DNA of 64,000 nt from a bacterium (GTDB lineage: Bacteria > UBA8248): positions 1,696,001 through 1,760,000 of the forward strand of contig CBDCRP010000003.1 of assembly GCA_965221165.1 (NCBI GenBank). The letters are read 5' to 3'. How positions within the stretch are numbered: position 1 is the first letter of the stretch; every line of letters begins with the position of its first letter. Both the position numbers and the translations under genes were made by a program. A model generated the notes under the pieces. It worked only from the letters and a program-made list of their open reading frames with translations, ran no database searches and had not been told where the DNA came from. Of this stretch, positions 2,972 to 31,556 are shown piece after piece.

Positions 2972-3104
2972 CCTGCGTTGGAGTCGACCGGCCAGGCGCC
3001 CTCGTGGCGCCCGGGAGTATCCACTTACCGCTGCTTCCTTCCGGACCTGACGGGGTTCGCGGGCTCCCGCCGCACGAGACCCAACCGGCCGAATCCATCG
3101 CAGG
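2972..3104 (-). ncRNA. ffs: Signal recognition particle RNA (4.5S)
   Basis: Minus strand carries CCGTCAGGTCCGGAAGGAAGCAGCGG (helix 8) inside a long hairpin; canonical position upstream of dnaX; ends approximate. Confidence 0.93.
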
Positions 3105-3275
3105 CTCTCAGGGAAATCCTACCCCGTAGGCAGGCCTTTGGGAAGCGGGGGCGTCTGCATTTTCGGCATGGCGAAGTGGCGCGCCGGGGGGAAGCGGATA
3201 ACCCTTCATGTAACACGGCGTTAGGGGGAACCTCCTCCGCGCGGCCGGCAACCAGCGAGGTTCCTTGTCCTGGAA

Positions 3276-3707
3276 TAGGGACGGACCTGTGTGTCCGCCC
3301 GCCTTTGTTTTTGATCGTCATTCCGGCAGTCCCTCCCGCATTGGTCGGGGTAGGACCCGTAGGGGACGGCCCCAAGGAGTCGGTTCCGACCGAAGAGGGA
3401 GGAACCGCCACCTACACCCCGAATGACGACCGTAGTAGGGACAATCCCCTGTGGTTGCCCTTCGTCAGGACAGGCGCGGGAATCGGACAGGCACGGGGGC
3501 TTGTGGGGCAGCCCCGAGGAGGGCAGCCACTACGAAACCATTATGCTCCCGTAGGGGCGGACCTGTGTGTCCGCCCGTCTTTGTTTTTGATCGTCATTCC
3601 GGTGCATGCTGGTGGCAACCGCAGGTTGACCAGGCGGACGGGAAACGCATCGTCAAACCCGACCGAAGAGGGAGAGTTTGTGGATTCCGGCATCCGCCGG
3701 AATGACG
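3276..3707. repeat. Cluster of REP-like palindromes (GTAG- and CGTC-tagged) including a 51-bp direct repeat
   Basis: TAGGG(A/G)CGGACCTGTGTGTCCGCCC...GTCATTCCGG at 3276-3326 and 3552-3602 (2 mismatches); GTAGGGACAATCCCCTGTGGTTGCCCT; GGATTCCGGCATCCGCCGGAATGACG. Confidence 0.85.
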
Positions 3708-3913
3708 TTGGTGGGACCGCTCATGGGTCGGGGATACAAAAAGCCGGGACGATGCAGCGCTAAAGTAGTTATCGGTAAAATTTCTCCGGCGGGCTGCGGA
3801 TGTCGCCATTTCGCCCGCAATGGGGTTACAATGGATTTTCAAATACCCGATCGCGCGAAGCCCTTGGCGCGGGTATCTTTCTTCGCGCCAAATGCGGAAA
3901 GGCAACCCGAAGC

Positions 3914-4777
3914 ATGTCTTATTCGAAGTTAGTCGAACTCTCGGAGGGAAAGGCTTACGTCCTCCACAACACGTTTCCGCTGGATGGCCGAATCAGCGCT
4001 TATCCCATCAGCGCGCGCGGGCATAGCGTCTCGAACTGCTATCTCTTGAAAGAAGAAACAGGCGCGCTTCTGCTCGATACGGGCTACGCCGTTCACGAAG
4101 CCGAAATCCTGGCGCAGCTCGCATCCGTTCTCGACCCCGAGACGCCGCTGTCGCTCCTTCCGCTTCGCATCAACGAATTCATGTCGGTGGGCAACGCCAT
4201 GGCGATCGCCAAGCGCTTCAACGTGGTGGAATGCCTGGCCCCCGTGCCGAAAATAAACGAGTGGCTCGAGTTCGAAACGATTGATCCGGGCGGCGGGAAC
4301 AACGGCAACCCCACCCTCAACACTACGCTATTGAAACCACTCCACCCCTTTGAAATCGGCGAGAGATACATCGAAGTCATGAACGCGCCGATCCGTCTCA
4401 TCAACACCCGCTGGATTTACGACGAGGCCACGCGCACGCTGTTCTCCTCGGACATGTTCTCCCACATCTGGCAAGAACGCGCCGACGGCCCCTGGATGCT
4501 GGATGAAGACGACGTGACGACAAACGCCTTCGTCCGCTCGTTTTTACTGAACACCCGCTACTGGTGGCTCGAGGGCGCGAGGACGGACGACATCCGAAAA
4601 GGGGTCGCCGAAGTCTTCGAGCGTTATGAAATCGAAACCATCGCTCCGGGATACGGCGTCATCCTGCGCGGACGTCATCTGGTCGAGCGGCAATTCTCCG
4701 TGCTCGACGAGGTTCTGGCGGGCCTAGACCGCACGGTCGTCAAACCAGGATACGTCGCCTTGGGCCTCGAGAGATAG
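3914..4777 (+). CDS. MBL-fold (ODP/FprA-like) protein with degenerate metal motif
   Basis: NCYLL...LLLDTG, TLFSSDMF, IAPGYG; lacks the HxExxH motif; paralogous to the next gene; start set to ATG 3914. Confidence 0.7.
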   Translation: MSYSKLVELSEGKAYVLHNTFPLDGRISAYPISARGHSVSNCYLLKEETGALLLDTGYAVHEAEILAQLASVLDPETPLSLLPLRINEFMSVGNAMAIAKRFNVVECLAPVPKINEWLEFETIDPGGGNNGNPTLNTTLLKPLHPFEIGERYIEVMNAPIRLINTRWIYDEATRTLFSSDMFSHIWQERADGPWMLDEDDVTTNAFVRSFLLNTRYWWLEGARTDDIRKGVAEVFERYEIETIAPGYGVILRGRHLVERQFSVLDEVLAGLDRTVVKPGYVALGLER

Positions 4778-4786
4778 GATAAATTC

Positions 4787-5548
4787 ATGAGTTATCCGCT
4801 GCCCCGTGAAATATCGACCGGCGTCTTCTGGCTCGGCGACTGCCTCGTACAACACTCCCAGGGGAAAATCTACCACTCCTACAATGCGGCTTTTCTCGTC
4901 ATCGGCTCGGAAGCCTCCATACTCGTGGAGACGGGGCATCCCAAGGATTTTCCCGCCATCGAGGGGCAGATGCGAGACATTCTGGCCAGAGGCGGCGGGC
5001 CGCTCAAGCACCTGTTCCTGACCCATCAGGAAACCCCCCATTCGGGCGGTCTGGGCCGCGTGCTCGACCGATACCCCGACCTCACCATCCACGGGGATAT
5101 GTGCGACTACCACCTGGCGTTCCCCCAACACGCGGATCGCTTCAAGGAAATGCGGGTGGGAGAGGCCATCGACTTGGGGAACACGAGGTTCATGGCCGTG
5201 GAGCCCGTGATCAGGGACTTGAGGAGTTCTCTTTGGGGATTCGAGACCGCCGGGCGGGTGCTCTTTCCCGGAGACGGCTTCGCCTACAGCCACTACCATA
5301 CGGACGGGCATTGCGGCATGTTCGCGGAGGAGGCCACCTCTCTCGACCTGGTCGACGTGCTGGGCGTATTCGCGGAGCGCGCCCTGTTCTGGACCACCTT
5401 CACCGACATGAACATCTATGCCGACAAGCTCGAAGAACTGATGGATAAGCTGAACGTCGGGGTGGTCGCTCCGACCCACGGCCTCCCGATAAGGAACATC
5501 GCGCAAACGATGCCCAAGGTGAGAGAAGGCCTCGTCAGAGACGAGTAA
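4787..5548 (+). CDS. MBL-fold di-metal protein (ODP/flavodiiron N-terminal-like)
   Basis: YNAAFLV...LVETG, THQETPHSGG, VLFPGDGF, VAPTHG. Confidence 0.8.
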   Translation: MSYPLPREISTGVFWLGDCLVQHSQGKIYHSYNAAFLVIGSEASILVETGHPKDFPAIEGQMRDILARGGGPLKHLFLTHQETPHSGGLGRVLDRYPDLTIHGDMCDYHLAFPQHADRFKEMRVGEAIDLGNTRFMAVEPVIRDLRSSLWGFETAGRVLFPGDGFAYSHYHTDGHCGMFAEEATSLDLVDVLGVFAERALFWTTFTDMNIYADKLEELMDKLNVGVVAPTHGLPIRNIAQTMPKVREGLVRDE

Positions 5549-5584
5549 GGTTCAGCGCCAAGACTCCAGAATATTCAAACCGGC

Positions 5585-5983
5585 TTAGACGTCCTCCACC
5601 AGTTCCCACAGCGCGCCCATGGTGCTTTTGGGCTGGATGAAGGCGATGAGGTGCCCGCCGAAGCCGGGCCTTGATTTCTCGTCAATCAACTCGAAGCCCC
5701 GCGCCTTCAAATCGGCCAGCACGCCGTCGATGTTCTTCACGTCGAAGGCCACGTGGTGGAGGCCCTCGCCGCGCTCTTCGATGAATTTGGCGAGAGGGGT
5801 GCCTTCCTTGATGGGCGAGATGGGCTCGATGAGGTCGCCGCCCAGATCCAGCATCGCCAGATCGGTCGCGCCGTCGGCCGAAGTCTCCCGCGCGAGCAAT
5901 TTAGCGCCCATGCTTTCATACAGAGCAATGGAGGCGTCCATATCCTTCACCGCGACGCCTATGTGATGAAATTTGTTGAACAT
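5585..5983 (-). CDS. VOC-family protein, methylmalonyl-CoA epimerase-like
   Basis: HHIGVAV, GEGLHHVAF, IAFIQPKSTMGALWELVE. Confidence 0.85.
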   Translation of the reverse strand: MFNKFHHIGVAVKDMDASIALYESMGAKLLARETSADGATDLAMLDLGGDLIEPISPIKEGTPLAKFIEERGEGLHHVAFDVKNIDGVLADLKARGFELIDEKSRPGFGGHLIAFIQPKSTMGALWELVEDV

Positions 5984-6205
5984 ATTCGCGTTTCCTCCCG
6001 ATCAGGCGCGGGGACGGGAATTTCCCCCGCCCGCCGCATCGAATGCTCCATGGATTGACGAGACATCTGTTTAGCAGGCTTGCCGGAATTCCACAATCAA
6101 ACCCTTAGTTTTCGGTTCCGGGAAACTATACTTGAGCGCGCGTTTGCCGTATCCTGCACTTATCAGCGGGAATCATACGGACGACATATTCATAAGGAGA
6201 AATTC

Positions 6206-6766
6206 ATGGAAGGCCCGATTGATGGACACGGCACGTCCACGGTTCCGGGTGAGCGCGTCATCGACAAGCCCGAACACCCCGCCGGGGGGCTTTATACGGA
6301 CAACACCGTCCACACCGAGATGCACGAGGGCGCTCTTCAGCTCAAGCGCGGCAGGGCGGGAGATTTCGAGATATTCTGCGACGAGGGCGCCGGGATCGGC
6401 GGCACGGCCCGATACCCCACCCCGATGGCCTATCTCGCGATGGCGACGGGGTTCTGACTGCTCACCCAGGTGTCGCGGTACGCGCACATGATGAAAATGG
6501 AAATCAAGGGGGCGAGCGTCTCGGTCCGGTTCAAAAAGCTGCTGGGCGGCTCCGTTTTGAAGGGAACCGTGTTCAACAAGTGGGAGAGCGTGGACACGCA
6601 CCTGAAAGTCGAATCGGACGAGCCTGCGGACAAGCTCGCGCATCTCATCAAAAACGCCAAGAACGGCTGTTTCGCCGAGGGCTTGATCACCGAGCCGGTG
6701 CCTTTGAACTCCACCGTGGAGGTGAACGGCGAGCCGTTCAGAATCGAAGGGGTAACGGCGGACTGA
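6206..6766 (+). CDS. OsmC-family peroxiredoxin-like selenoprotein (UGA at 6455-6457 read as Sec)
   Basis: RBS AAGGAGA and ATG 6206; the two listed ORFs are in one frame joined by TGA: PTPMAYLAMATGF-U-LLTQVSRY...NGCFAE; hairpin GTGTCGCG-GTA-CGCGCAC at 6470-6487. Confidence 0.85.
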
Positions 6767-6788
6767 CCCGCCATATATGGAGCCATCA

Positions 6789-7238
6789 ATGGAATACTTC
6801 GACGCGTCGCCCGACATATCATTCGGCTCACAGCCCGAGCCTGCGGATCTCGAATCCCTCGCAGATAGAGGGGTCAGGACCATCATCAACACGCGCTTTC
6901 CCGAGGAAGACCAGGGCGAGTTGCCGCCCGCGCGCGCGAAGGCCGAGGCCGAGGCGCTGGGGATGCGCTACGTGAACATCCCCGTCTCGCCGGTGGAGTT
7001 CAGTCCCGATTCGCTCGCCGAGGTGAGCCGCGCGCTCGATGAGTCCAAGGCCCACGGGCCTACGTTCGTGCACTGAAAGGCCACTGGGCGGGCCGGGATT
7101 TGCTCGCTGAACCATCTGGCGGATGAGAACGCGTGGAGCGCGGGGGAGATGGAGGGGGCCGCCGACGCCACGGGCTTCGACTGGCGCGAAGCGCCGCTGG
7201 CGCCCAAATACCGCGAATTCTTCGCGCAGAGGGGATGA
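6789..7238 (+). CDS. DUF442/Blh-like rhodanese-phosphatase-fold sulfurtransferase, selenoprotein (UGA at 7074-7076)
   Basis: SQPEPADL...GVRTIINTRFPEE...YVNIPV...PTFVH-U-KATGR matches the HCx4R loop; frame stays open 53 codons to TGA 7236-7238. Confidence 0.82.
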
Positions 7239-7546
7239 CCCCCCCTACCCCCCGAAAAGGGCGATTTTGGGCCGATCTGTTTTCTATCTATTTGATTATA
7301 CTTGACTTACCGCCCATTTAATTTTCAGATATTTTCGCCTAATTTCGCCTATTTTCAGATATTTTCACTTATTCGCGCCCCCGCTCCGCGCATGACGCTC
7401 CGCTTCACCACCATACACGCCCGCGCCCCGAGGCCGGTGACGGGATTTGCGGCCAAATGCGTGGTTCAATTCCGAGCGATGAGGGAGGGATTGTTCCGAC
7501 CAATACGAGAGGCATTCCTGAGCGGTCGTGGCTCCCTTCATCTGCG

Positions 7547-7875
7547 CGGGCCGCATGTATGCGGCCCCTACAATCGCCACGCATGCTTTTTCCGTAGGGG
7601 TCGCATATATGCGACCCGACGGCACAATTCCCACCTATAAAGGAAACCCACTCCCCCCTACGGGTCAAACCCGACCGGGGAGGGAGGGGCTGCCGACCGG
7701 GGAGGGGTTGGTTGCGCGTCTTCTGTAGGGGCGGACCTGTGTGTCCGCCCGCCTTCGTCATATCCGCCCCTGCGCCCGCCCTATGGTGGGGTGATGCAAT
7801 GGGCGGACACACAGGTCCGCCCCTACGATCAATCGCGACCGATGAGGTCAATCCCGACCGGGGAGGGAGGGATTG
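7547..7875. repeat. REP-like cluster with inverted REP pairs
   Basis: Perfect 26-bp inverted pair 7725-7750 / 7801-7826 (GTAGGGGCGGACCTGTGTGTCCGCCC); second pair 7547-7571 / 7594-7618; hairpin modules at 7664 and 7847. Confidence 0.88.
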
Positions 7876-8028
7876 GATTGCTGGCCGAGGAGCGGAGAAT
7901 AGCCTGCGGGTATGATTTCGCCCGTCATACCGGAATGGTCCTATCCGGTATCCAGAGACTTTGCGGACGAGGAAACAACCCCGATCTCAAAGCGATGCTT
8001 TCACGGCATATTCTGAAATAAGGGGGTT

Positions 8029-10452
8029 TCAGGCGTCCTCCCCCCACACCCTTGCGACCGCCGCCTGAATCTTTTTCTCGAAGCGATCGATGAGTTTGCG
8101 GTTGGATTCGACCATGGCCTGCTCGGCTTCTATCTCGGCGACGATGTCCTGTTGGGTTTCAAGGGGTGGAAGGGGAATTAGTATTCTCTCCAAATTTCCT
8201 TTCGTGATGTGGACAAGACCAACACCACCATGAAGATTTTCTTCAACCTCCGCAACTGCTCTATTTAGTACGTAGTGCAAATACATTTTCATTGTCTGAC
8301 TTTGATTGAATTCGATCTTGAAAATGTGCTGGTTCAATATGGCCTTGCCGCCACTCCAAATATGCGCTCCAAAAGAGGTGCCTCGTGAGCCAGACCATGA
8401 GAACAAAAGCTGCCCTCGGCTAATAATGTACTGATCTTTCACTTTCCCAGTGTAATAATTAAACTCACTGCTAGGGGAATTTAGGTTTTGAATTCGTACA
8501 ATCGGGAGGCCACCACTATCGGCACGCTCCCAGTCCTGTGGCTTAAAAGCACGCCCGTTGACAAGGTTGCAAATATCACCAATCGCCACCATCGGCCATT
8601 CAGGATCGACCGCGATATGCGGGCGATAATTGTCGACCACCGCGCGCGCTCCGTCGATGACCTTCTGGTAGCCCTCGATTTCGGCGACGATCTCCTTTTG
8701 AATATCGAGAGGAGGGAGGGGGATTTTGTGCGTTTGGTAAACTTCCGTCCTGTTAAGGCCCGGAATACCCGCACCGCCCCTCAATTCTTGAAGTTTTAGG
8801 CTCTTCAAGACCCAATAGAGATAAACGAGCTCAGATTCACTGGGGTTGGTTTGCCTAACGTAATACGTCGTATCTATAGGAAAGCAATTTTGCTGAATAA
8901 ATGTCACTTCACCTGCCGATCCTTTTCTTCCGACGACAATTGCAGGCCCCTCGATGAGGAAATCGTTATGGTATCCAGTGATACCGTTCGAGCCAACGAC
9001 AGGAAAGGAACCCTCGACACGCTTTGCTTTTGGTAGGCTCGCACCATATTCAAGTGTGCAGACATCTTCAAATTGGCATAACGGAAACTTGGATCTAGCT
9101 TGAGCTGCCTCTCGATACCTCTCCCCACTCAGATTGTACTCCCCGTTCTCCGCAATCTTCTCCTTCTCGACGATCAGCCCGAGCGTCGGCTCGAAATCAT
9201 CCAGTGGTTCCCCCGCCCGCAGCCGCCGCAGGTATTCGATTATCTCCGTCTTAGCTTGAGGCAGGTTGTTCTTATCAATCTCCCGCCGCTGCGCTCCCAG
9301 GTCGTAGCCGTCGTTCTCGACTTTGAAGAAGGCGACGTGGTTCGCCCTCCTCGCCAGCGGCTTATCCAGAATGAGGATGGAGGTCTTGACACCCGAATAG
9401 GGCTGGAACACGCCCGGAGGCAAAGAGACCACGGCGACGAGATATTCTTCCACCAGCATCTTGCGAAGCTGCTTATAAGCGTTCTGGCTCTGGAAGATGA
9501 TTCCCTCGGGCACGATGATGCCCGCGCGGCCCCCCGTCGTCAGGTGCCCGGCCATGTAGTCCACGAAGAGCACCTCGCTGCGCCTGGATTGCACCGAGAA
9601 GCGGTTGTGCGGGCGGATGCCGCCTTTGGGGGACATGAACGGCGGGTTCGCCAGAATAACGTCCGCGAATTCGTTCCAGTTATCTTCGCTCGTGAGCGTG
9701 TCGTACTCGGAAATATGCGGGTCGGTGAACCCGTGCAGGTACATGTTCGCCAGAGAGAGCCGCACCATGTCGGGCGAAATGTCGTAGCCCTTGAGATTGG
9801 CGGCCAGCCGTGTCTTCTCGTCCGGCGTCAGGCTGCTCCCGCCGTTTTCATCCGTGTTGGCCTTTAGAACGTGCTTGTAGGCGGAAATCAGAAAGCCTGC
9901 GGTGCCGCAGGCGGGGTCGAGCAGCCTCTCGTCTTTTTTGGGGTCTACTATCCCGACGATGAAGTCGATGATGTGGCGTGGGGTGCGGAACTGCCCGGCG
10001 TCGCCCTGGGAGCCGAGCACGGAGAGCAGGTACTCGAAGGCGTCGCCCAGCCGTTCCGAGTGATCGTAAGTAAACTCGTCGATAATTTTGAGAAAGGCGC
10101 GCAGGGTTTCGGGGTCTCGGTAGGGCAGATAGGCGTTCTTGAAGATGTCGCGAAACAGCGGCGGAACCCCCGGGTTCTCCGGCATCCGGGTGATGGCCTC
10201 GGCGTAGAGGTTCAGGGTCTCATGGCCGCCCAGGCCCGCGCGGGTCAGCTTCGCCCATCCGTAGCGGGCGAAATCACCGGCGAAAAAGCTGCGCTTCCCG
10301 CCCAACTCCTCGCTTTCGGCGTCGATGTCGTCCATGAACTTGTAGATCAAGGCGATGGTTATCTGCTCGACCTGGCTTTTGGGGTCGGGCACCTTGCCCA
10401 CGAGAATGTCGCGGGCGGTGTCGATGCGGCGTTTTGTGTCGGCGTCGAGCAT
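8029..10452 (-). CDS. Type I RM N6-adenine methyltransferase fused to specificity subunit (HsdM-HsdS, two TRDs)
   Basis: GQFRTP, DPACGTAGFL, NPPF, then two TRDs each closed by IPLPPLxxQxxIVAEIE. Confidence 0.92.
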   Translation of the reverse strand: MLDADTKRRIDTARDILVGKVPDPKSQVEQITIALIYKFMDDIDAESEELGGKRSFFAGDFARYGWAKLTRAGLGGHETLNLYAEAITRMPENPGVPPLFRDIFKNAYLPYRDPETLRAFLKIIDEFTYDHSERLGDAFEYLLSVLGSQGDAGQFRTPRHIIDFIVGIVDPKKDERLLDPACGTAGFLISAYKHVLKANTDENGGSSLTPDEKTRLAANLKGYDISPDMVRLSLANMYLHGFTDPHISEYDTLTSEDNWNEFADVILANPPFMSPKGGIRPHNRFSVQSRRSEVLFVDYMAGHLTTGGRAGIIVPEGIIFQSQNAYKQLRKMLVEEYLVAVVSLPPGVFQPYSGVKTSILILDKPLARRANHVAFFKVENDGYDLGAQRREIDKNNLPQAKTEIIEYLRRLRAGEPLDDFEPTLGLIVEKEKIAENGEYNLSGERYREAAQARSKFPLCQFEDVCTLEYGASLPKAKRVEGSFPVVGSNGITGYHNDFLIEGPAIVVGRKGSAGEVTFIQQNCFPIDTTYYVRQTNPSESELVYLYWVLKSLKLQELRGGAGIPGLNRTEVYQTHKIPLPPLDIQKEIVAEIEGYQKVIDGARAVVDNYRPHIAVDPEWPMVAIGDICNLVNGRAFKPQDWERADSGGLPIVRIQNLNSPSSEFNYYTGKVKDQYIISRGQLLFSWSGSRGTSFGAHIWSGGKAILNQHIFKIEFNQSQTMKMYLHYVLNRAVAEVEENLHGGVGLVHITKGNLERILIPLPPLETQQDIVAEIEAEQAMVESNRKLIDRFEKKIQAAVARVWGEDA

Positions 10453-10463
10453 GGGGTTCCTCT

Positions 10464-13016
10464 CTAGGGGTACGGCGCGAACCGGTTCAGAGAAACGTAA
10501 TCCTTGACGTAGTTCGGAATCAGAGCGCGGTATTTCTCCGGCACGTTGCTAAAGGCGGCGAAAGAGAGGGCCGGTTCCGTGGCGAGGGCGGGGTATCGCC
10601 TCTCGTCGATGATGGCGCGAATCCTGTCGCTCGTGGCATACGCCTCGAAGTAGCTCCGCATGGCCGGGATGGCGGCGGCGTCCTCGGGTTCATGATCAAC
10701 GAGGAACTTGGCGAATTCCTCCTCCAGCAGGTCGCGCTTCGACTTGAAATCGGGAATGAAGCCGAAGACTTTCTCCAGAATCTCGCGGAGGGTGAGGCGT
10801 CTATCGGCATCAGCCGCCTTACGCAGCTTGTCGAGGTTGTAATAATCCTCTGGCTTGTCGAACACCTCGCGGTTCACGTGGTCGATCACGCGCTCCCACT
10901 CACCGGCCTGGACGGCGGCAGCGATGTTCGCGTCCTCCCGCACGGTATCGCGAAACCTGTCGAAGAGCATTCGGTCGACCTTCATGCCCCGATACCCGAT
11001 GGGCACTTCCTTGACGCCCGCGAGGATGTCCTCGCCTGTGTGCTCGTAAACGCCTCGTATCTGAGTAGGCCCGTCGCCCTCACCGGGATCACCCCCGCCG
11101 CGCTTGCGGATCTGCGGCAGCTTCAACACTTGCTCGTAGTCGTACTCGGTCTCGAAGTATTCGTAGTTGCCGAAGAAATCGAAGAGCCTGAACGCTGTTT
11201 TTTGCGTCTCCTCCGACTCGGGAATATCTTGTAAAAGCCTCTCGTCGGTGATCTGCTGCCTGAAATCGTGCATACGCGTGCCGCGTCCTTTGATCTGCAC
11301 GAAATCCGTGGGCGAGAAGATGGGGCGGAACAGGCCGACGTTCAAGACGTCGGTGCAGTCGTAACCCGTCGTCATCATCCCCACCGTCACGCAAACTCGG
11401 GCCTTGCTCGTCCGGTAGCCGTCCAGAAAATTGGCCGAGCCCAGTAGGTTGTTGTTCGCGAAGTTGACGGTGAACCGCTGGGCGTCTGCGATTTGGGAGG
11501 TCACCTGCACGGCGAAGTCGGACTGATATTTGCCCGGAAACATCCTGTCGGCTATCTCGTTCATTATCTGTGCGAGCTTGGCCGCGTGGTTCTGGCTCAC
11601 GGCGAAGACGATCCCCTTCCCGACCTCCCCGCTCACGGGATCGCGCAGGGCGTTCTCCAGAAAAGTCTTACAAAAAAGCTGGTTGGTGGCTTCGGAGTAG
11701 AAGCATTTTTCGAACTCGCGCTTTTTGTAGATTTCCTCCCACTCCTCGCCCTCATCGTCGGTGAAAGCGGCGACGAAGCCCTCATCCGAAAGAAGCTGCG
11801 TGGTTATGTCCGTGCGGGCGTCCACCACGGTCGCGTTGATCAGGTATCCGTCCCTCACGCCGTCGAGCAGCGAATAATGAAAGGTGGGTTGATCTATCTC
11901 GCAGCCGAATGTGTGGTACGTGTCTCGTTGCAGGCGGCGCTCCACCGCGCGCGGGTCGCGAATGGTCGCGTCTACCTCATCGAAGTTTTTGAGGTAAGCG
12001 CGGGGCGTGGCAGTGAGACCCAGCTTGCAGCCCACGAAGAAATCGAACACGCCGCGGGCGTTGCCGCTTATCGAGCGGTGCGCTTCGTCTGAGATCACGA
12101 GGTCGAAATCCGTCGGCGAAAAAAGTCGCTCGTATTTGTCGTTGAACTGGAAGGATTGCACGGTGGTAACGACGATTTCGGCGCGCCGCCAGTCGTCGGG
12201 GTTGTGCTTGTAGACGACGGTGTCGTAGTCATTCGAAAGCAAATCTTTGAAGGCCTTGAACGCCTGCTCTTCGAGTTCGAGCCTGTCCACCAAGAAGAGC
12301 ACCCGGCGGGCGTTGCCCGTGCGCAGGAACAGTTTGATGACGGCGGCGGCGGTGAGCGTCTTGCCCGTGCCCGTGGCCATCTCGAACAAGAAGCGATCGC
12401 CACCCTCACGCACCGCTTTTTGCAGCGCGTGGATTGCCCGCAGTTGATAAGGGCGCAGAAACCGCAGCTTGTTGGCCCGAATGTATTCTTCGCGCTCGTT
12501 CTCGTTTCTCCAGGCGGCCTCTTTGGCGTAGTTCGGCTGCTGGGTGAGGACGATGTAATCCTCGCCGACTTGCTCGTCGACCAGACGCCCAAGATCCGGG
12601 GAAAACTCCCGGCGTGCGGAGGCTGAGTCCGGCGTCGGGAACGCGGTGATGGGATGGGGGTTGCCGTGCTCCAGGTCCCAGAAGTGGTGCTGGTTGCCGT
12701 TCGAGAGGATGACGAAACGGCAGTTCTGCGAGCGGGCGTATGTGCGGGCCTGCTCTTTTCCTACGAGCGGATTTATCCTCTCGGACTTCGCCTCCAGGAC
12801 GATGAACGGGAATCCCGCCTCATCGAGCAGCAGGAAGTCGATGAAGCCCCTGGAGGTTTGCTCGAAGTCATCACCCAGGCCGTCCAGGTCCGCCGTCTTG
12901 ATGGTGACGCTCGGCTCCAGGCGGATGTTGGCGGGCTTTCCGTCTTCGGAGAAAAAGCGCCAGCCGGCCTCTTCGAGCAGCTTGTTTATCTTGACGCGAG
13001 CAGCAGCCTCGCTCAT
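10464..13016 (-). CDS. hsdR: Type I restriction endonuclease subunit R
   Basis: N-terminal nuclease (IDF...LEAK...QAR.YA), Walker A MATGTGKT, DEAH, LTATP, TTGYD, QIKGRGTR; start set to ATG 13016. Confidence 0.92.
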   Translation of the reverse strand: MSEAAARVKINKLLEEAGWRFFSEDGKPANIRLEPSVTIKTADLDGLGDDFEQTSRGFIDFLLLDEAGFPFIVLEAKSERINPLVGKEQARTYARSQNCRFVILSNGNQHHFWDLEHGNPHPITAFPTPDSASARREFSPDLGRLVDEQVGEDYIVLTQQPNYAKEAAWRNENEREEYIRANKLRFLRPYQLRAIHALQKAVREGGDRFLFEMATGTGKTLTAAAVIKLFLRTGNARRVLFLVDRLELEEQAFKAFKDLLSNDYDTVVYKHNPDDWRRAEIVVTTVQSFQFNDKYERLFSPTDFDLVISDEAHRSISGNARGVFDFFVGCKLGLTATPRAYLKNFDEVDATIRDPRAVERRLQRDTYHTFGCEIDQPTFHYSLLDGVRDGYLINATVVDARTDITTQLLSDEGFVAAFTDDEGEEWEEIYKKREFEKCFYSEATNQLFCKTFLENALRDPVSGEVGKGIVFAVSQNHAAKLAQIMNEIADRMFPGKYQSDFAVQVTSQIADAQRFTVNFANNNLLGSANFLDGYRTSKARVCVTVGMMTTGYDCTDVLNVGLFRPIFSPTDFVQIKGRGTRMHDFRQQITDERLLQDIPESEETQKTAFRLFDFFGNYEYFETEYDYEQVLKLPQIRKRGGGDPGEGDGPTQIRGVYEHTGEDILAGVKEVPIGYRGMKVDRMLFDRFRDTVREDANIAAAVQAGEWERVIDHVNREVFDKPEDYYNLDKLRKAADADRRLTLREILEKVFGFIPDFKSKRDLLEEEFAKFLVDHEPEDAAAIPAMRSYFEAYATSDRIRAIIDERRYPALATEPALSFAAFSNVPEKYRALIPNYVKDYVSLNRFAPYP

Positions 13017-13348
13017 GGGGTCCTCTTCCTCGTGTCGAAATATCCACCTTTTGGATACCTTTCTTTTAGAACTTTTCTCCGAGGAGAGCAATCTCACCCG
13101 GCTTTTCCGGCGGAAAACTAACCCCGCCCCCCATTCATGTCAAAACATCAATTTCCCGTGAATAGTCCCCATAAAACACCCTTCATTCACGCTGAACCGC
13201 CTAAATAACGTGAATGGATTTTCCGCTATGAGGAGTACGCGCGGTCGCAATTGTCTTTCTTCTTGACACGCATCATGCGTCTCGCTAGGTTTGCTTGGCA
13301 CTCCACACATCTGTCCTGTGTTTGTCGCCGCAAGTCCAGGGGGGGACC

Positions 13349-19826: not shown

Positions 19827-20264
19827 ATCCGCCAAAATTCCACCTCCCGCACCACACCGCCGATTCGCCTCGACCGAAGTGGGTGATCGGAATTATCAAC
19901 CGTTTCCATATTCTCTATTCATGGATGAGAGTTTTCTACACTCCAGCATCCATTCTAGGTCTACGGTCTGTGGGTGGCCCGGATCTTCCCTGTCCCTCGG
20001 TGCCCTGTGTCGCAATATCGTTATTAGAATAATAACAAATCCAGAATTTATTTTGTAGATTGTAGTCATTTTTCGCTCGACTCCGGCGTGTCCAATAGCG
20101 ATGTTTTGATCTAACCTCGCAAAAACTTTACAAACAAAATGCGCCATGATAGCTTCGACGAAATAAATCACCCAGAAAATCTGCCCGGTTCCCACTTGCT
20201 ATGTTGCATGATTTCGTGCGCTCAGAGGACTGAATTTCTATATTGCCAAACATGGAGTGTAATA

Positions 20265-21713
20265 ATGAGTAGCATCGACGATATTTTAGAGAAAGCCCAA
20301 CTCGCAAGGCTTATTCCTACGATTGCCGACTCCCGCAAGGAAGGGCGGCTTGTATCCGTTCTGCTCTCAACGCTGTCCGTGGTGCATCCGTTCGCCAAAC
20401 AGCTTTTGGATCGCTGTGGAATGAGGATGGGAAAGACATCCAAATTACTCAGCCATACGGAGGTCAAATTTCCAACCTCTGATGAAAGCGGCAATGGAAG
20501 TAGTGAAGACCGGCCCGATGGTGTCTTGACTCTATCAACAGGTAAGTCCCGGTGGAGAGCACTGGTCGAAGCGAAGATTGACAATGTCGAGATTGATCAA
20601 GAGCAGGTGCATCGGTACGCAAGAATCGCACGAACTTGCGGGATCGACGCAGTGATCACGTTGTCGAATCAGCTAACGCCTTTGCCAACACATATCCCGT
20701 ACTCAATGCCAAAGACACTCAGAAATCGCGTCGATTTCTTTCATATTTCCTGGATTAGCGTACTCACCCAAGCATCATTGATTTTGAGGGATAAAGAAGA
20801 AATAAGCAGCGAGCAAGCATTCATTCTCGAAGAGATGGTTCGTTATTTCGAACATCCAAAGTCCGGGGTCAAGCGGTTCGATCAAATGAATAAAGAATGG
20901 CGGCCACTCGTTAGCGGAATTAGTAATGGGCAAAAGTTCAGCCGCTCCGCTCCCGAGATCGAGAATACGATTTCCAGTTGGCATCAGGAAGAGCGAGACG
21001 TTTGTCTATTGTTGAGCCGTCTCATCAGAAAACACGTCGATATCCGCCTCTCTCGCAAGCACCAGAACGATACCACGCTGAGGTTTCGTGAAGCATGTGA
21101 TTCGCTGATTGCTTCCCATGAACTGCGTTCCAGCTTCAGTGTACCGAATGCCGCCGGCGACATAGAAGTAACAGCGAATTTGGAGCGTAGAACGATTTCC
21201 TGCTCCATGAAACTGAATGCGCCCGGCGACAAGAAGCGAGCCGGCGCGAGAATTAACTGGCTCCTTCGACAGTTGCGAGACGTTGCCGGGGATGATGTGA
21301 TCGTTCGGGCTTTATGGCCTAGGGGAGCAACGACTCAGGAGTACCTATCAAAGGTCCGAGGCGATATCAATTGTCTTGAAATCGGGCGTCCAGGCGCAAC
21401 GCTTACAAGTTTCGAGGTTGTGATGGTCGAATACCTCGCAGGCCGTTTCTCAGGGCCACGGAACTTCATTGAAGATTTGGAAGAATTAGTACCTGAATTC
21501 TACGACATAATTGGTCAGCGTTTACGGCGTTGGTCTCCCCCACCCCCACCGATCGATAAGCGCGACCCAATCCAGGAACCCACTACCTCTAAAGCATCCG
21601 AAGAGAGAAGTGTGAACGAATCTCCGCCATTGGAGACGAACCAAACTCACGATCTTCCCGAATCAAACGATACGAACTCATCATCCACGGAGCATCCACA
21701 CAGGATGGTTTAA
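20265..21713 (+). CDS. PD-(D/E)xK nuclease-domain protein, AT-richer insert
   Basis: EDRPDG...LVEAK...QVHRY motif; lower GC than flanks; RBS GGAG before ATG 20265. Confidence 0.65.
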   Translation: MSSIDDILEKAQLARLIPTIADSRKEGRLVSVLLSTLSVVHPFAKQLLDRCGMRMGKTSKLLSHTEVKFPTSDESGNGSSEDRPDGVLTLSTGKSRWRALVEAKIDNVEIDQEQVHRYARIARTCGIDAVITLSNQLTPLPTHIPYSMPKTLRNRVDFFHISWISVLTQASLILRDKEEISSEQAFILEEMVRYFEHPKSGVKRFDQMNKEWRPLVSGISNGQKFSRSAPEIENTISSWHQEERDVCLLLSRLIRKHVDIRLSRKHQNDTTLRFREACDSLIASHELRSSFSVPNAAGDIEVTANLERRTISCSMKLNAPGDKKRAGARINWLLRQLRDVAGDDVIVRALWPRGATTQEYLSKVRGDINCLEIGRPGATLTSFEVVMVEYLAGRFSGPRNFIEDLEELVPEFYDIIGQRLRRWSPPPPPIDKRDPIQEPTTSKASEERSVNESPPLETNQTHDLPESNDTNSSSTEHPHRMV

Positions 21714-22961: not shown

Positions 22962-23069
22962 GCGAGACTTGGGTGAATAGCTAGTTGACCATAGCTCCCG
23001 ATGTGTCGAGAATAGCACTTGCAACTTGAAAGCTTTATTTTGATGTGCCTCTCGAAGGGATTAAGTAAA

Positions 23070-24200
23070 ATGCCTAGAAAACAATCAGGCGGCCACCTTC
23101 ACCTTCATGATCTAGCGATCAAGGGGTTTCGCGGAATTAAAAGTCTTTCCCTTCCCCGGCTGGGCCGTGTGACCTTGCTCGCCGGAAAGAACGGTGTCGG
23201 AAAATCCACCGTACTCGAAGCGGTCGCGGTATACGCAGCGCGCCGTTATTGCAATGAAGTTCTTTCCAATATGCTGAAAAAGCGTGAGGAATTGTCTATT
23301 GCGCAAGATGAAAATGGCGATACGTTTCCTGTACCCAATATTGAAGCTCTTTTCCACGGTTGGGATGCATCGAAAAATGCGTTTATCGTGATTGGCCCAT
23401 CTAAAGAGCCAGATCAACTCAGAATTGAAAATGCCTCTCACAACGATCTCACAAATGAACAGATGGTACTTGAAGGCTTCAGGTCTGAATCGTACCACTA
23501 TGATGATATGCAATGGCTAAATATCAAATTTCGAGGCAAACAGAATATTTTCCCTTGGGCAAATCTCAAAAGCCGTCGCCCGCTAAGAGGTAGGTGGGGA
23601 TTCGTTGCAGAAGCAAATCTTCCAAAAGAAATAAAATGTGAGACATTGGGTCCGGGCCTACTTAACAACGATGAGATAGCAAAGTTTTGGGACAAAATCG
23701 CGCTGACCTCTGAAGAGGATCAGACAGTTAATGCCCTGAAGTTGATCTTCGGAGTCAAAGTGGAGCGCATTGCGGTCACTGCAGAAGAATATAAACAGCA
23801 TGGTCGCCGCGTTATCGTAAAGCTCAAGGATCACTCTGACCCCGTTCCTCTGAAAAGCTTGGGAGACGGCGCGATTCGCCTTTTCAGCATTGCCCTGGCT
23901 TTGGCGAACAGTAGGGACGGCATCCTGTTAATCGACGAAGCGGAAAACGGAATTCACCATTCCGTGCAATCGGATTTCTGGCGCATGGTGCTGCGAATGG
24001 CGAACGAGAACAACACGCAGGTTCTGGCCACGACCCATAGCTGGGACTGCGTGCGGGGATTCGCACAAGCCGCGACCGATGACGAAGACACCGAGGGCAT
24101 TCTCTTTCGCCTCGAACGGGACGACGAAGACGTTTGGGCGATCTTCTACCCTGAAGATCAACTTAAGATCGCCGCCGAACAGGGCACCGAAGTCAGGTAA
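23070..24200 (+). CDS. ABC-type ATPase (AAA_15/AAA_21-like), putative defence sensor
   Basis: IKGFRGI, Walker A GKNGVGKS, SLGDG signature, ILLIDEAENGIH, TTHS; AT-richer. Confidence 0.88.
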   Translation: MPRKQSGGHLHLHDLAIKGFRGIKSLSLPRLGRVTLLAGKNGVGKSTVLEAVAVYAARRYCNEVLSNMLKKREELSIAQDENGDTFPVPNIEALFHGWDASKNAFIVIGPSKEPDQLRIENASHNDLTNEQMVLEGFRSESYHYDDMQWLNIKFRGKQNIFPWANLKSRRPLRGRWGFVAEANLPKEIKCETLGPGLLNNDEIAKFWDKIALTSEEDQTVNALKLIFGVKVERIAVTAEEYKQHGRRVIVKLKDHSDPVPLKSLGDGAIRLFSIALALANSRDGILLIDEAENGIHHSVQSDFWRMVLRMANENNTQVLATTHSWDCVRGFAQAATDDEDTEGILFRLERDDEDVWAIFYPEDQLKIAAEQGTEVR

Positions 24201-24205
24201 AAAGT

Positions 24206-24913
24206 ATGCCCACCGCTGGTTCGCCATCTTTTCTTTTGTTGGTCGAAGGGCAGGATGATCGTCATTTCGTCAAACAGTTATGGGACAAGCATCACGGCGG
24301 GTCGTCGAAACCGTTATTTTTCAATGGCGCGGAGCCGCCATTTGGCATATCAGACAAAGGAAACTTTAATGAACTCTGCAAAGATATTCCCACACAAATT
24401 ACCACTCCCGGCAGAGAAGTGCTCGGAATTCTCGCGGACGCAAACGGCGACCCAGTGAAGCAGTGGGAAGAAATATCAAGCGAACTTAAAAAAACTTGTG
24501 ACCTGAGAGGCGCAAGTAAACATCTACAACTCGACTCAACTCAAATCCCGAATGCTCCAGACCCAACCGGAACGATCATCAATAGCAAACCACGCATCGG
24601 TATATGGCTGATGCCCGATAACGCATCGCCCGGCGAGTTGGAAGACTTTGCGGTGAAAATGGTTCCCGGTGACGACCCTGTCTGGCCGTTCTCCAAGGAA
24701 TACATCAACAATATCCCAAAGCAACATCGCAAATTTACAAGCGACAAAACGCCAAGAGCCGAGTTGTTCGCATGGCTTGCAACGAGAAAGGAACCCGGGC
24801 GTATGGGAGCAGCCATCGGCGCTGGTGGTTTGACACTGGACAATAAACCTAGCGAAACATTCCTGAAGTGGCTAAACGAGTTATTCAAACAACCTGCGAA
24901 CGTATCTTCTTAA
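24206..24913 (+). CDS. TOPRIM-fold protein (DUF3226/DUF4435-like)
   Basis: LLVEGQDD, GILADAN, GIWLMPDN...GELEDF; 5 bp after the ATPase gene. Confidence 0.8.
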   Translation: MPTAGSPSFLLLVEGQDDRHFVKQLWDKHHGGSSKPLFFNGAEPPFGISDKGNFNELCKDIPTQITTPGREVLGILADANGDPVKQWEEISSELKKTCDLRGASKHLQLDSTQIPNAPDPTGTIINSKPRIGIWLMPDNASPGELEDFAVKMVPGDDPVWPFSKEYINNIPKQHRKFTSDKTPRAELFAWLATRKEPGRMGAAIGAGGLTLDNKPSETFLKWLNELFKQPANVSS

Positions 24914-30042: not shown

Positions 30043-30272
30043 TCATGCCGCCGCCGAGGCCACAGCCTTGATTCCTGGATGCGCCGTCACTCTTGAATCT
30101 TCTTTGCGTATGAGAAAAAGACTAGCAAGAATCGCCGCGCGTGTCATCTTGAGAAGAGGCTCGAAAGCGGGTTCTACCATAATCATCCTCCACTCCCTCT
30201 CTAGTGAAATGTGGGATAAGCTACTGGAAATTGTCTTGCCCATTTCAAAATTCAAATTTGTCAGGAGTGTAT

Positions 30273-31556
30273 ATGAGCACCGACCCAACAATCATATGCC
30301 CGGAGTGTTCTGAGGAGATCAAACTTACAGAGTCATTAGCAGCGCCTCTTATCAAAACCGTCCAAACGGAATACGAGGCAAAAATCACTGAGAAAGAAAT
30401 GGAAGTTTCAAAGCGCGAGAATGAAATTCGCGCCCAACAAAGAGATATCGAGCGCGCGCAAAATGCGATTGATGAACAAGTTGCAGAAAAACTAAAAATG
30501 GAACGCGCTGCAATTTCGGAGGAGGAAGCTCAAAAGGCGAAACGTGCCGCTGCGTCTGACCTAGAAGCTAAAACAAAGGAGTTGGAAGAACTCGAAGAAG
30601 TCCTTAAGCAACGTGATCAGAAGCTGGAAGAGGCACAAAAAGCTGAAGCTGAACTACGTCGTAAGCAGCGCGAACTCGATGATGCCAAGCGCGAGTTAGA
30701 GCTAACTGTGGAAAAACGTGTCCAAGCCTCCGTGGAGGAAGTACGACAGAAAGCGAAGCAAGATGCAGAAGAAGACCTCAGGCTCACGGTCACAGAAAAG
30801 GAAGAACAGATTTCCTCGATGAAGCGCCAAATTGAGGATTTACAAAAAAAGGCAGAACAAGGATCCCAACAACTACAAGGGGAAGCTCTTGAACTGGAGC
30901 TTGAAACAAGATTGAACGTGAAATTTTCGTCAGATAGCATCGAGCCTGTTCCGAAAGGTGAGTCTGGCGCTGATGTGATCCAAAAGGTTGTTGGTCCGAT
31001 AGGTCAGACTTGTGGTCATATCCTCTGGGAATCAAAAAGGACTAAAAACTGGAACGATGAATGGCTTGCAAAACTCAGAAATGACCAACGCGCGGCCAAA
31101 GCGGAGATTGCTATTATCGTATCGACTGCATTGCCAAAAGACATAGAGACATTCGGGAATAGAGACGGCGTATGGATAACAGAACCTCGTTTTGCAATGC
31201 CACTGGCGGGTTGTCTTCGCCAATCTTTAATCGACGTGGCGAATACCCGAAAAGCACAAGAGGGTCAAGAAACAAAAATGGAGATGGTTTACCAGTATTT
31301 GACGGGGCCAGGATTCAAACACCGGGTAGAAGCAATCGTTGAAAAATTTTCAGATATGCAAGAGGACCTCGATAGAGAACGAAAAACCATGACACGATTG
31401 TGGGCGAAGCGCGAAGCACAAATCCAAGGAGTCATAGAATCAACGGCTGGCATGTATGGAGATCTCCAAGGCATTGCTGGCCGTGAACTTCAAGAAATTG
31501 AAAGTTTGGAGATCCCTCTTCTTGACGCCGGTGTGATTGATCATGATGGTGAGTAA
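30273..31556 (+). CDS. DUF2130 coiled-coil protein with C-terminal nuclease-like domain
   Basis: N-terminal CPEC, long coiled coil, QGSQQLQGEALE, GAD, WESKRTK; AT-rich. Confidence 0.85.
   Translation: MSTDPTIICPECSEEIKLTESLAAPLIKTVQTEYEAKITEKEMEVSKRENEIRAQQRDIERAQNAIDEQVAEKLKMERAAISEEEAQKAKRAAASDLEAKTKELEELEEVLKQRDQKLEEAQKAEAELRRKQRELDDAKRELELTVEKRVQASVEEVRQKAKQDAEEDLRLTVTEKEEQISSMKRQIEDLQKKAEQGSQQLQGEALELELETRLNVKFSSDSIEPVPKGESGADVIQKVVGPIGQTCGHILWESKRTKNWNDEWLAKLRNDQRAAKAEIAIIVSTALPKDIETFGNRDGVWITEPRFAMPLAGCLRQSLIDVANTRKAQEGQETKMEMVYQYLTGPGFKHRVEAIVEKFSDMQEDLDRERKTMTRLWAKREAQIQGVIESTAGMYGDLQGIAGRELQEIESLEIPLLDAGVIDHDGE

Follow-up and report, generated by a model that had tools for sequence, protein, structure and literature searches.

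Adjacent OsmC-related and DUF442-type selenoprotein genes in a bacterium of the UBA8248 lineage

The locus considered here is a pair of genes at positions 6206-7238 of a 64,000-nucleotide (nt) stretch of bacterial DNA, hereafter the window, taken from contig CBDCRP010000003.1 of GenBank assembly GCA_965221165.1 (positions 1,696,001 to 1,760,000, forward strand; GTDB lineage UBA8248). Gene 1 (6206-6766, + strand) encodes an OsmC-related selenoprotein of 186 residues and gene 2 (6789-7238, + strand) a protein of 149 residues, assigned as a selenocysteine (Sec)-containing, rhodanese-like sulfur transferase of the DUF442 family (PF04273). The two are co-oriented and separated by a 22-nt spacer (6767-6788). 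Translation with table 11 breaks each gene at a single in-frame TGA, which is codon 84 in gene 1 (6455-6457, + strand) and codon 96 in gene 2 (7074-7076, + strand), and both genes also terminate with TGA (6764-6766 and 7236-7238, respectively). A first-pass annotation had described this layout as a two-selenoprotein operon and proposed that it forms a selenium-based sulfur and peroxide relay; its coordinates and its description of the gene pair proved correct when the sequence was re-read directly.

Each gene has a ribosome-binding site of its own. AAGGAG (6194-6199, + strand) lies 6 nt 5′ of the gene 1 ATG at 6206, with its GGAG kept in an alignment of related intergenic regions, and GGAG (6779-6782, + strand) lies 6 nt 5′ of the gene 2 ATG at 6789. 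The latter start matches the N-termini of homologues, an alternative ATG being present at 6777. Upstream of gene 1, the same intergenic alignment reveals two conserved blocks on the + strand, GAAACTATACTTG (6122-6134) and GCGTTTGCCGTATCCT (6140-6155; this second block is also written GCGTTTGYCGTATCCT), which persist across 11 otherwise variable regions (the window and 10 related loci) between gene 1 and an opposite-strand methylmalonyl-CoA-epimerase-like (MCE) gene. These blocks are a candidate promoter or operator of the gene pair. A scan of 5500-8100 gave no match to the sigma-70 consensus, the 6122-6155 blocks included, and no terminator-like site between or directly after the two genes, which are probably co-transcribed in this lineage. 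The MCE gene itself occupies 5585-5983 (- strand) in the window and is divergent; it comes after two tandem genes of the metallo-beta-lactamase (MBL) fold at 3800-5548 (+ strand), which have weak matches to ODP and to the flavorubredoxin diiron domain.

On comparative grounds, both genes are genuine selenoprotein genes: in each, UGA stands where homologues have the catalytic Cys, and a hairpin resembling a selenocysteine insertion sequence (SECIS) follows. A genome scan with gene 2 returned 78 loci, and the codon opposite the internal TGA was read in loci L001-L036, where L001-L032 come from Nitrospinota-labelled metagenome-assembled genomes (MAGs) and one Tectomicrobia MAG, and L033-L036 from other phyla. 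TGA occupies the gene 2 column in 32/32 of the former, down to about 41% protein identity and with conserved sequence 3′ of the codon, and Cys occupies it in L033-L036. In gene 1, codon 84 is TGA in all 18 of the loci that carry this gene. The reading frame remains open and ungapped past TGA for 102 codons in gene 1 and 53 codons in gene 2. For gene 2, the three codon positions (1/2/3) show a mean pairwise variation of 0.25/0.21/0.48 upstream of TGA and 0.25/0.26/0.46 downstream of it; for gene 1, the corresponding values are 0.08/0.07/0.27 and 0.07/0.05/0.27. Since this pattern is alike on both sides of TGA, the region 3′ of TGA evolves as coding sequence.

Homologues of both proteins place Cys opposite the UGA codon. 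Cys-form homologues of gene 1 (P0069, P0070, P0072, and P0073) read GFCL(L/M)TQ at U84, and in the PDB structure 3cje one Cys aligns to U84 and another to C154. For gene 2, the full-length Cys-form homologue P0036 has HCKAIGRAGVCS opposite HUKATGRAGICS, and the active-site Cys of the DUF442 structures 2f46 and 3gxg aligns to U96. Public protein records are consistent with annotation that halts at UGA: a protein search with gene 2 yielded 66 matches, 58 of which are 95 residues long, as expected from such a halt, and the 11 of these that were read all end in "VH" or "IH", directly before UGA.

An alternative is that the internal TGAs are nonsense mutations in pseudogenes or split genes, or that every UGA in this organism is read as an amino acid. 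Public annotation does show fragments (95 residues for gene 2, 83-84 and 92 residues for gene 1), and no Sec machinery was seen in the window. However, retention of the same TGA column in 18/18 and 32/32 genomes is incompatible with decay; moreover, the region past TGA evolves as coding sequence, and the TGA always stands opposite Cys. TGA is also the terminal codon of both genes and of many other long open reading frames (ORFs) in the window. UGA therefore ordinarily signals termination in this organism, and recoding is position-specific rather than a change of the genetic code. The comparative data and the ordinary role of TGA as a stop leave pseudogenes or code reassignment a probability close to nil, and both readings were rejected.

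The second line of evidence lies in the RNA. Bacterial SECIS (bSECIS) elements are described by four rules, namely a loop of 3-9 nt, a G within the first two loop positions, a spacing of 16-37 nt, and a minimum free energy of at most -7.5 kcal/mol (PMC13188914, section 5). The gene 2 hairpin (7087-7108, + strand) meets all four: a 7-bp stem, GGCGGGC/GCUCGCU, closes the loop CGGGAUUU (7094-7101), which begins 17 nt past UGA, and the predicted energy is -9.7 kcal/mol. RNAalifold analysis of 23 gene 2 sequences kept 7/7 pairs, with one position varying between G and A opposite an invariant U. The gene 1 hairpin (6470-6487, + strand), GUG(U)CGCG / GUA / CGCGCAC, has a stem of 7 bp, from which one U bulges, and a GUA loop that begins 20 nt past UGA. 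It satisfies the loop, G, and spacing rules and is borderline on energy, at -8.1 kcal/mol with 3-nt flanks; its nucleotides are identical in 19 sequences.

Codon usage within these hairpins is frozen. Counted over conserved degenerate codons, columns in which a single codon is used make up 6/8 at codons +4 to +11 of gene 2 versus 1/39 elsewhere (Fisher p = 1.7e-5), and 8/10 at codons +1 to +11 of gene 1 versus 31/128 elsewhere (p = 6.5e-4). This synonymous freeze points to constraint at the RNA level, exactly at the place expected of a bacterial SECIS. Together with the conserved TGA columns, it upholds the first-pass claim of two selenoprotein genes with UGA at the Cys column and a hairpin behind it.

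Several observations weigh against Sec decoding at this locus. Taken without flanks, the gene 1 hairpin reaches only -6.7 kcal/mol and falls short of the -7.5 threshold. Neither hairpin is significantly more stable than shuffled sequences (z = +0.49 and -0.16), and neither shows compensatory base-pair changes. In addition, no selA, selB, or selD turned up among the window ORFs compared with Pfam or NCBIfam, and no tRNA-Sec is present in the 64 kb. Sec decoding here is therefore deduced from conservation and from a distantly related organism, the MAG that supplied L019, which is listed with 54 selenoprotein genes (PMC13326102). Because hairpin energy does not exceed that of shuffles, the case is built on conservation among relatives. 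A split by TGA is by itself no evidence either, since a mechanical scan of this 60% G+C window gave 132 TGA-split ORF pairs. Five of these candidates were examined further; one is an ABC ATPase whose family match begins past TGA, and none of the five matched a selenoprotein family. Across the window, Rfam returned only a signal recognition particle (SRP) RNA and one tRNA above the gathering threshold, with no SECIS match.

Gene 1 is a member of an already known selenoprotein family. It scores 164.2 bits against the NCBIfam model NF041052 (OsmC_like_Se, "OsmC-related (seleno)protein"; cutoff 95) and 2.6e-12 against Pfam OsmC, and it carries a UxxT motif (U84-L-L-T87) together with a second conserved Cys, C154. 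The first-pass assignment to an OsmC-type oxidoreductase is thus reasonable. An OsmC-like selenoprotein with UxxT was reported in the Sargasso Sea survey of 2005 as COG1765 (PMC1088965), and a review of 2026 still gives the UxxT motif for this family in its Table 1 (PMC13188914). Gene 1 shows no material difference from NF041052 and the Sargasso Sea protein, and only its neighbour is unusual. An undescribed system, as first proposed, is therefore not to be sought in gene 1, whose curated family has been known since 2005.

The first Cys of OsmC/Ohr proteins is the peroxidatic Cys. Gene 1 has both of the Cys-column positions of OsmC/Ohr thiol peroxidases, with Sec84 in place of the first Cys conserved in the OsmC fold and Cys154 in that of the second. 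By analogy with these enzymes, the protein may reduce hydroperoxides. In such a cycle, Sec84 would be oxidized to a selenenic acid, which would form a selenenylsulfide with Cys154 and then be re-reduced by a cellular thiol system.

Gene 2 matches Pfam PF04273 (BLH_phosphatase, formerly DUF442) at 52.1 bits, above the cutoff of 26.1, and a profile of its family retrieves the DUF442 structures 2f46 and 3gxg first among PDB entries, followed by TpbA-type phosphatases. U96 and R101 are invariant in the family alignment and delimit a six-residue loop, U-K-A-T-G-R, of the form U-X4-R; H95 directly precedes the loop and Cys105, nine residues past Sec, is nearly invariant. The same spacing occurs in DUF442 proteins of measured function. 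The Cupriavidus DUF442 domain has an essential Cys94 that carries a persulfide, with C94 and R99 spaced as C-X4-R (PMC6441731, PMC9163753), and the DUF442 domain of Xylella Blh is a thiosulfate:cyanide sulfur transferase by measurement (PMC5823870). Given these family matches and relatives, the "persulfide carrier" of the first-pass annotation is a reasonable family assignment for gene 2.

Two findings set limits to that assignment. Against TIGR01244, gene 2 scores 50.7 bits, under the curated cutoff of 85.85, and it is thus a divergent relative of the TIGR01244 subfamily rather than a member. Its identity to Cys-type DUF442 proteins is also low, at about 30-38%, and its activity is extrapolated from them. 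With this proviso, gene 2 would be an enzyme with a protein tyrosine phosphatase (PTP) fold and a rhodanese-like active site in which Sec96 replaces the catalytic Cys. Sulfane sulfur or selenium may be bound to U96 as a Se-S(e) adduct, with R101 in a positively charged pocket, and the protein, by extension from the biochemistry of Cys-type DUF442 proteins, could hand this sulfur or selenium to thiols, sulfite, or a partner.

The PTP fold also allows a different reading, in which gene 2 is a PTP-type phosphatase or an arsenate-reductase-like enzyme with Sec96 as nucleophile and Cys105 as a back-door resolving residue. The near invariance of Cys105 suits such a role, as do weak matches in Pfam to families of the DSP-PTPase type (PF22741, 1.5e-05; PF22784, 4e-04; PF13350; PF22785) and PDB profile matches to TpbA and to plant glucan phosphatases. 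However, every PTP-type Pfam match lies under its curated cutoff, and the U-X4-R loop is one residue short of the CX5R loop, such that alignment to TpbA-type enzymes needs a gap at this point. The best matches are to DUF442 (2f46, 3gxg, and PF04273), whose relatives with measured sulfur-transferase activity share the C-X4-R spacing. A phosphatase or arsenate reductase is hence quite improbable.

As a sulfur-transferase-type protein, gene 2 shares its domain and its H-C-X4-R active-site spacing with the N-terminal domain of Xylella and Agrobacterium Blh, with the domain of the Cupriavidus pinatubonensis sulfide:quinone oxidoreductase (SQR) protein, and with Neisseria meningitidis 2F46. It differs from these DUF442 sulfur transferases in having Sec in place of the catalytic Cys, an additional conserved Cys nine residues on, and a C-terminal segment (W, GFDW) that is specific to its family. 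Unlike the Blh and SQR proteins, it stands alone at 149 residues with no fusion to a persulfide dioxygenase or SQR. The rhodanese-like selenoproteins (forms 1-5; PMC13188914, Table 1) resemble gene 2 in that Sec occupies the persulfide-carrying position of a sulfur-transferase-type loop, but they belong to PF00581 or to NF041203/NF045694, whereas gene 2 belongs to the PTP-fold family PF04273.

The 119 families and subfamilies in Table 1 of the 2026 review include no entry for PF04273, TIGR01244, or DUF442 (PMC13188914). A full-text literature search, with supplements and subscription papers outside its reach, found no link of DUF442, PF04273, or TIGR01244 to Sec, and NCBIfam has no Sec-specific model for the family; an NCBI record labels the 95-residue stump of gene 2 a "sulfur transferase domain-containing protein". 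Gene 2 by itself thus seems to represent a selenoprotein family not yet catalogued, a point that the first-pass annotation missed, with an earlier listing in supplementary family lists being possible.

Whether the two genes act as a pair can be judged from the distribution of their adjacency. An OsmC-Sec gene lies directly 5′ of the DUF442-Sec gene in 18/32 loci, all of them within L001-L018, which represent one closely related clade with protein identities of 77-97% (77-93% to the gene 2 product of the window). An opposite-strand MCE gene stands beside the pair in 18/18 of these loci, and MBL-fold genes are near it in 17/18; L017 has none, and in L016 they lie further upstream by about 3 kb. 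This shared flanking synteny, along with the high identity, means that common descent explains the adjacency of OsmC and DUF442. Beyond these close relatives the adjacency is absent, as no OsmC relative was found within 6 kb at L019, L020, L021, L027, or any of ten paralogues of a second clade, clade B. Linkage of the two genes in relatives, on which the relay idea had been made to depend, is therefore partly contradicted, being found in 18 loci of a single clade and lacking in 14/32. One Nitrospinaceae MAG, moreover, bears both genes at locus tags that are far apart (HOC91_03525 and HOC91_06430).

Outside the OsmC context, the DUF442-Sec genes have another recurrent neighbour. In 12/32 loci, the gene follows a co-oriented Transglut_core2 (PF13369) gene at a distance of 26-66 nt (this arrangement lies at 5002-6447 in L019, at 5017-6450 in L027, and at about 5134-6471 in the ten clade-B loci L022-L026 and L028-L032), and a flavin amine oxidase gene and ilvD are close by. 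The Transglut_core2 neighbour is retained at 41-66% identity to the window protein, a far greater divergence than that over which the OsmC neighbour is kept, and the Transglut_core2 neighbourhood may therefore be the older functional context of Sec-DUF442. In a tree whose A/B root is unsure owing to long branches, the genes in OsmC context form a nested group, and L019, L027, L020, and L016 are not resolved at its base. Both DUF442-Sec paralogues occur together in at least eight genomes.

It has been proposed that DUF442-Sec carries persulfide or polysulfide sulfur, or selenium, and exchanges it or redox equivalents directly with OsmC-Sec in a dedicated relay that would constitute a new system for detoxifying reactive sulfur and peroxide. 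The genes are co-oriented, gene 2 has its own ribosome-binding site, and no terminator-like site separates them. The spacer measures 21-25 nt in 14/18 loci, which also fits a functional operon and is compatible with coupling, a point against treating the two proteins as independent. A neighbouring pair of Sec genes is, in addition, unusual. Adjoining selenoprotein genes that both have a UGA and a SECIS of their own are known from grdA-grdB, prdB-prdC, Prx with a SelW-like gene, Prx-like with an AhpD-like gene, SAO, and Tso (PMC13188914, section 9); unlike these, the combination of OsmC-Sec with DUF442-Sec is absent from that listing and confined to one clade, whereas the genes of the grd and prd pairs encode components of a single enzyme.

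Against a relay stand, besides the ancestry that accounts for L001-L018 and the loci and the MAG in which the genes are apart, the remaining spacers. L015 and L017 have spacers of about 72 nt and L014 one of about 205 nt; in L016 the two genes are 697 nt apart, and an opposite-strand ORF of 127 codons with lower G+C (5423-5806, - strand) has been inserted between OsmC-Sec and DUF442-Sec. Short protein clusters number 871 for OsmC-Sec fragments versus 58 for those of DUF442-Sec, which means that a DUF442-Sec partner must be lacking for most OsmC-Sec genes. Cys-type DUF442 genes show no such association: none of the 91 immediate neighbours at 46 loci, one gene per side, is an OsmC gene at E <= 1e-10, a cutoff that may miss weak OsmC matches. 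Neighbours that recur at these loci, namely ArsR-type regulators (3) and TauE sulfite exporters (2), recall the BigR operon. A dedicated relay, whose sole basis was an adjacency limited to one clade and interrupted in L016, is thus unlikely. The pair is better described as an arrangement specific to its lineage than as an established system.

A related proposal would make gene 2 an unrecognised selenol carrier of sulfane sulfur or selenium, recruited beside OsmC-Sec to form a two-selenol module. This is a rather improbable reading; if true, it would point to detoxification of persulfide, polysulfide, or peroxide, or to selenium traffic, in a very selenoprotein-rich bacterial lineage. The reading preferred here, and held with good confidence, is that gene 1 and gene 2 encode two genuine selenoproteins acting as independent Sec-for-Cys redox and sulfur enzymes, which possibly share regulation and form no obligate relay. 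Their pairing would be a recent, lineage-specific arrangement, and it is for this reason that the two are read as independent enzymes.

Several other features of the window lie outside this question. The long intergenic region 3′ of gene 2 (7239-8028) contains five AT-rich repeats with 10-nt spacing (7321-7389) and palindromes resembling repetitive extragenic palindromic elements. A 22-nt core, GGGCGGACACACAGGTCCGCCC, has four copies in the window where none is expected, with repeat sites that include 3279-3300 and 3555-3576. Next follows a type I restriction-modification locus (8029-13097, - strand), in which methylase and specificity domains are fused in a protein of 807 residues that adjoins a restriction subunit of 877 residues. 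At 23019-24913 (+ strand), an AAA_15 ATPase and a DUF3226 protein match A and B of the PADLOC candidate defence system PDC-M38 (8.2e-85 and 9.5e-32); their third-position G+C of about 0.52, against about 0.8 in neighbouring genes, suggests that they were horizontally acquired. Third-position G+C is likewise low in genes at 20139-21713 and 30204-31556 (DUF2130). The bacterial small SRP RNA lies at 2987-3086 (- strand; 71 bits), and an ORF of 261 codons at 2978-3763 is probably spurious because it overlaps this RNA on the opposite strand and has no family match.

For the biology of the lineage, gene 1 contributes nothing new, and its adjacency to gene 2 is a useful lead on co-regulation that on present evidence does not amount to a new system. 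With gene 2, the prokaryotic selenoproteome would gain a further family, namely a rhodanese-like sulfur transferase of the PTP fold that has Sec instead of the persulfide-carrying Cys, with two paralogous clades and a bSECIS core that is among the most strongly conserved imaginable. Since current pipelines truncate this protein to 95 residues (58/66 matches), selenoproteome counts for the Nitrospinota-labelled genomes considered here are too low, and the DUF442 chemistry of these genomes has been overlooked. Because DUF442 occurs naturally in both a Sec and a Cys form, it would also allow the contribution of selenium to sulfane-sulfur transfer to be tested cleanly.

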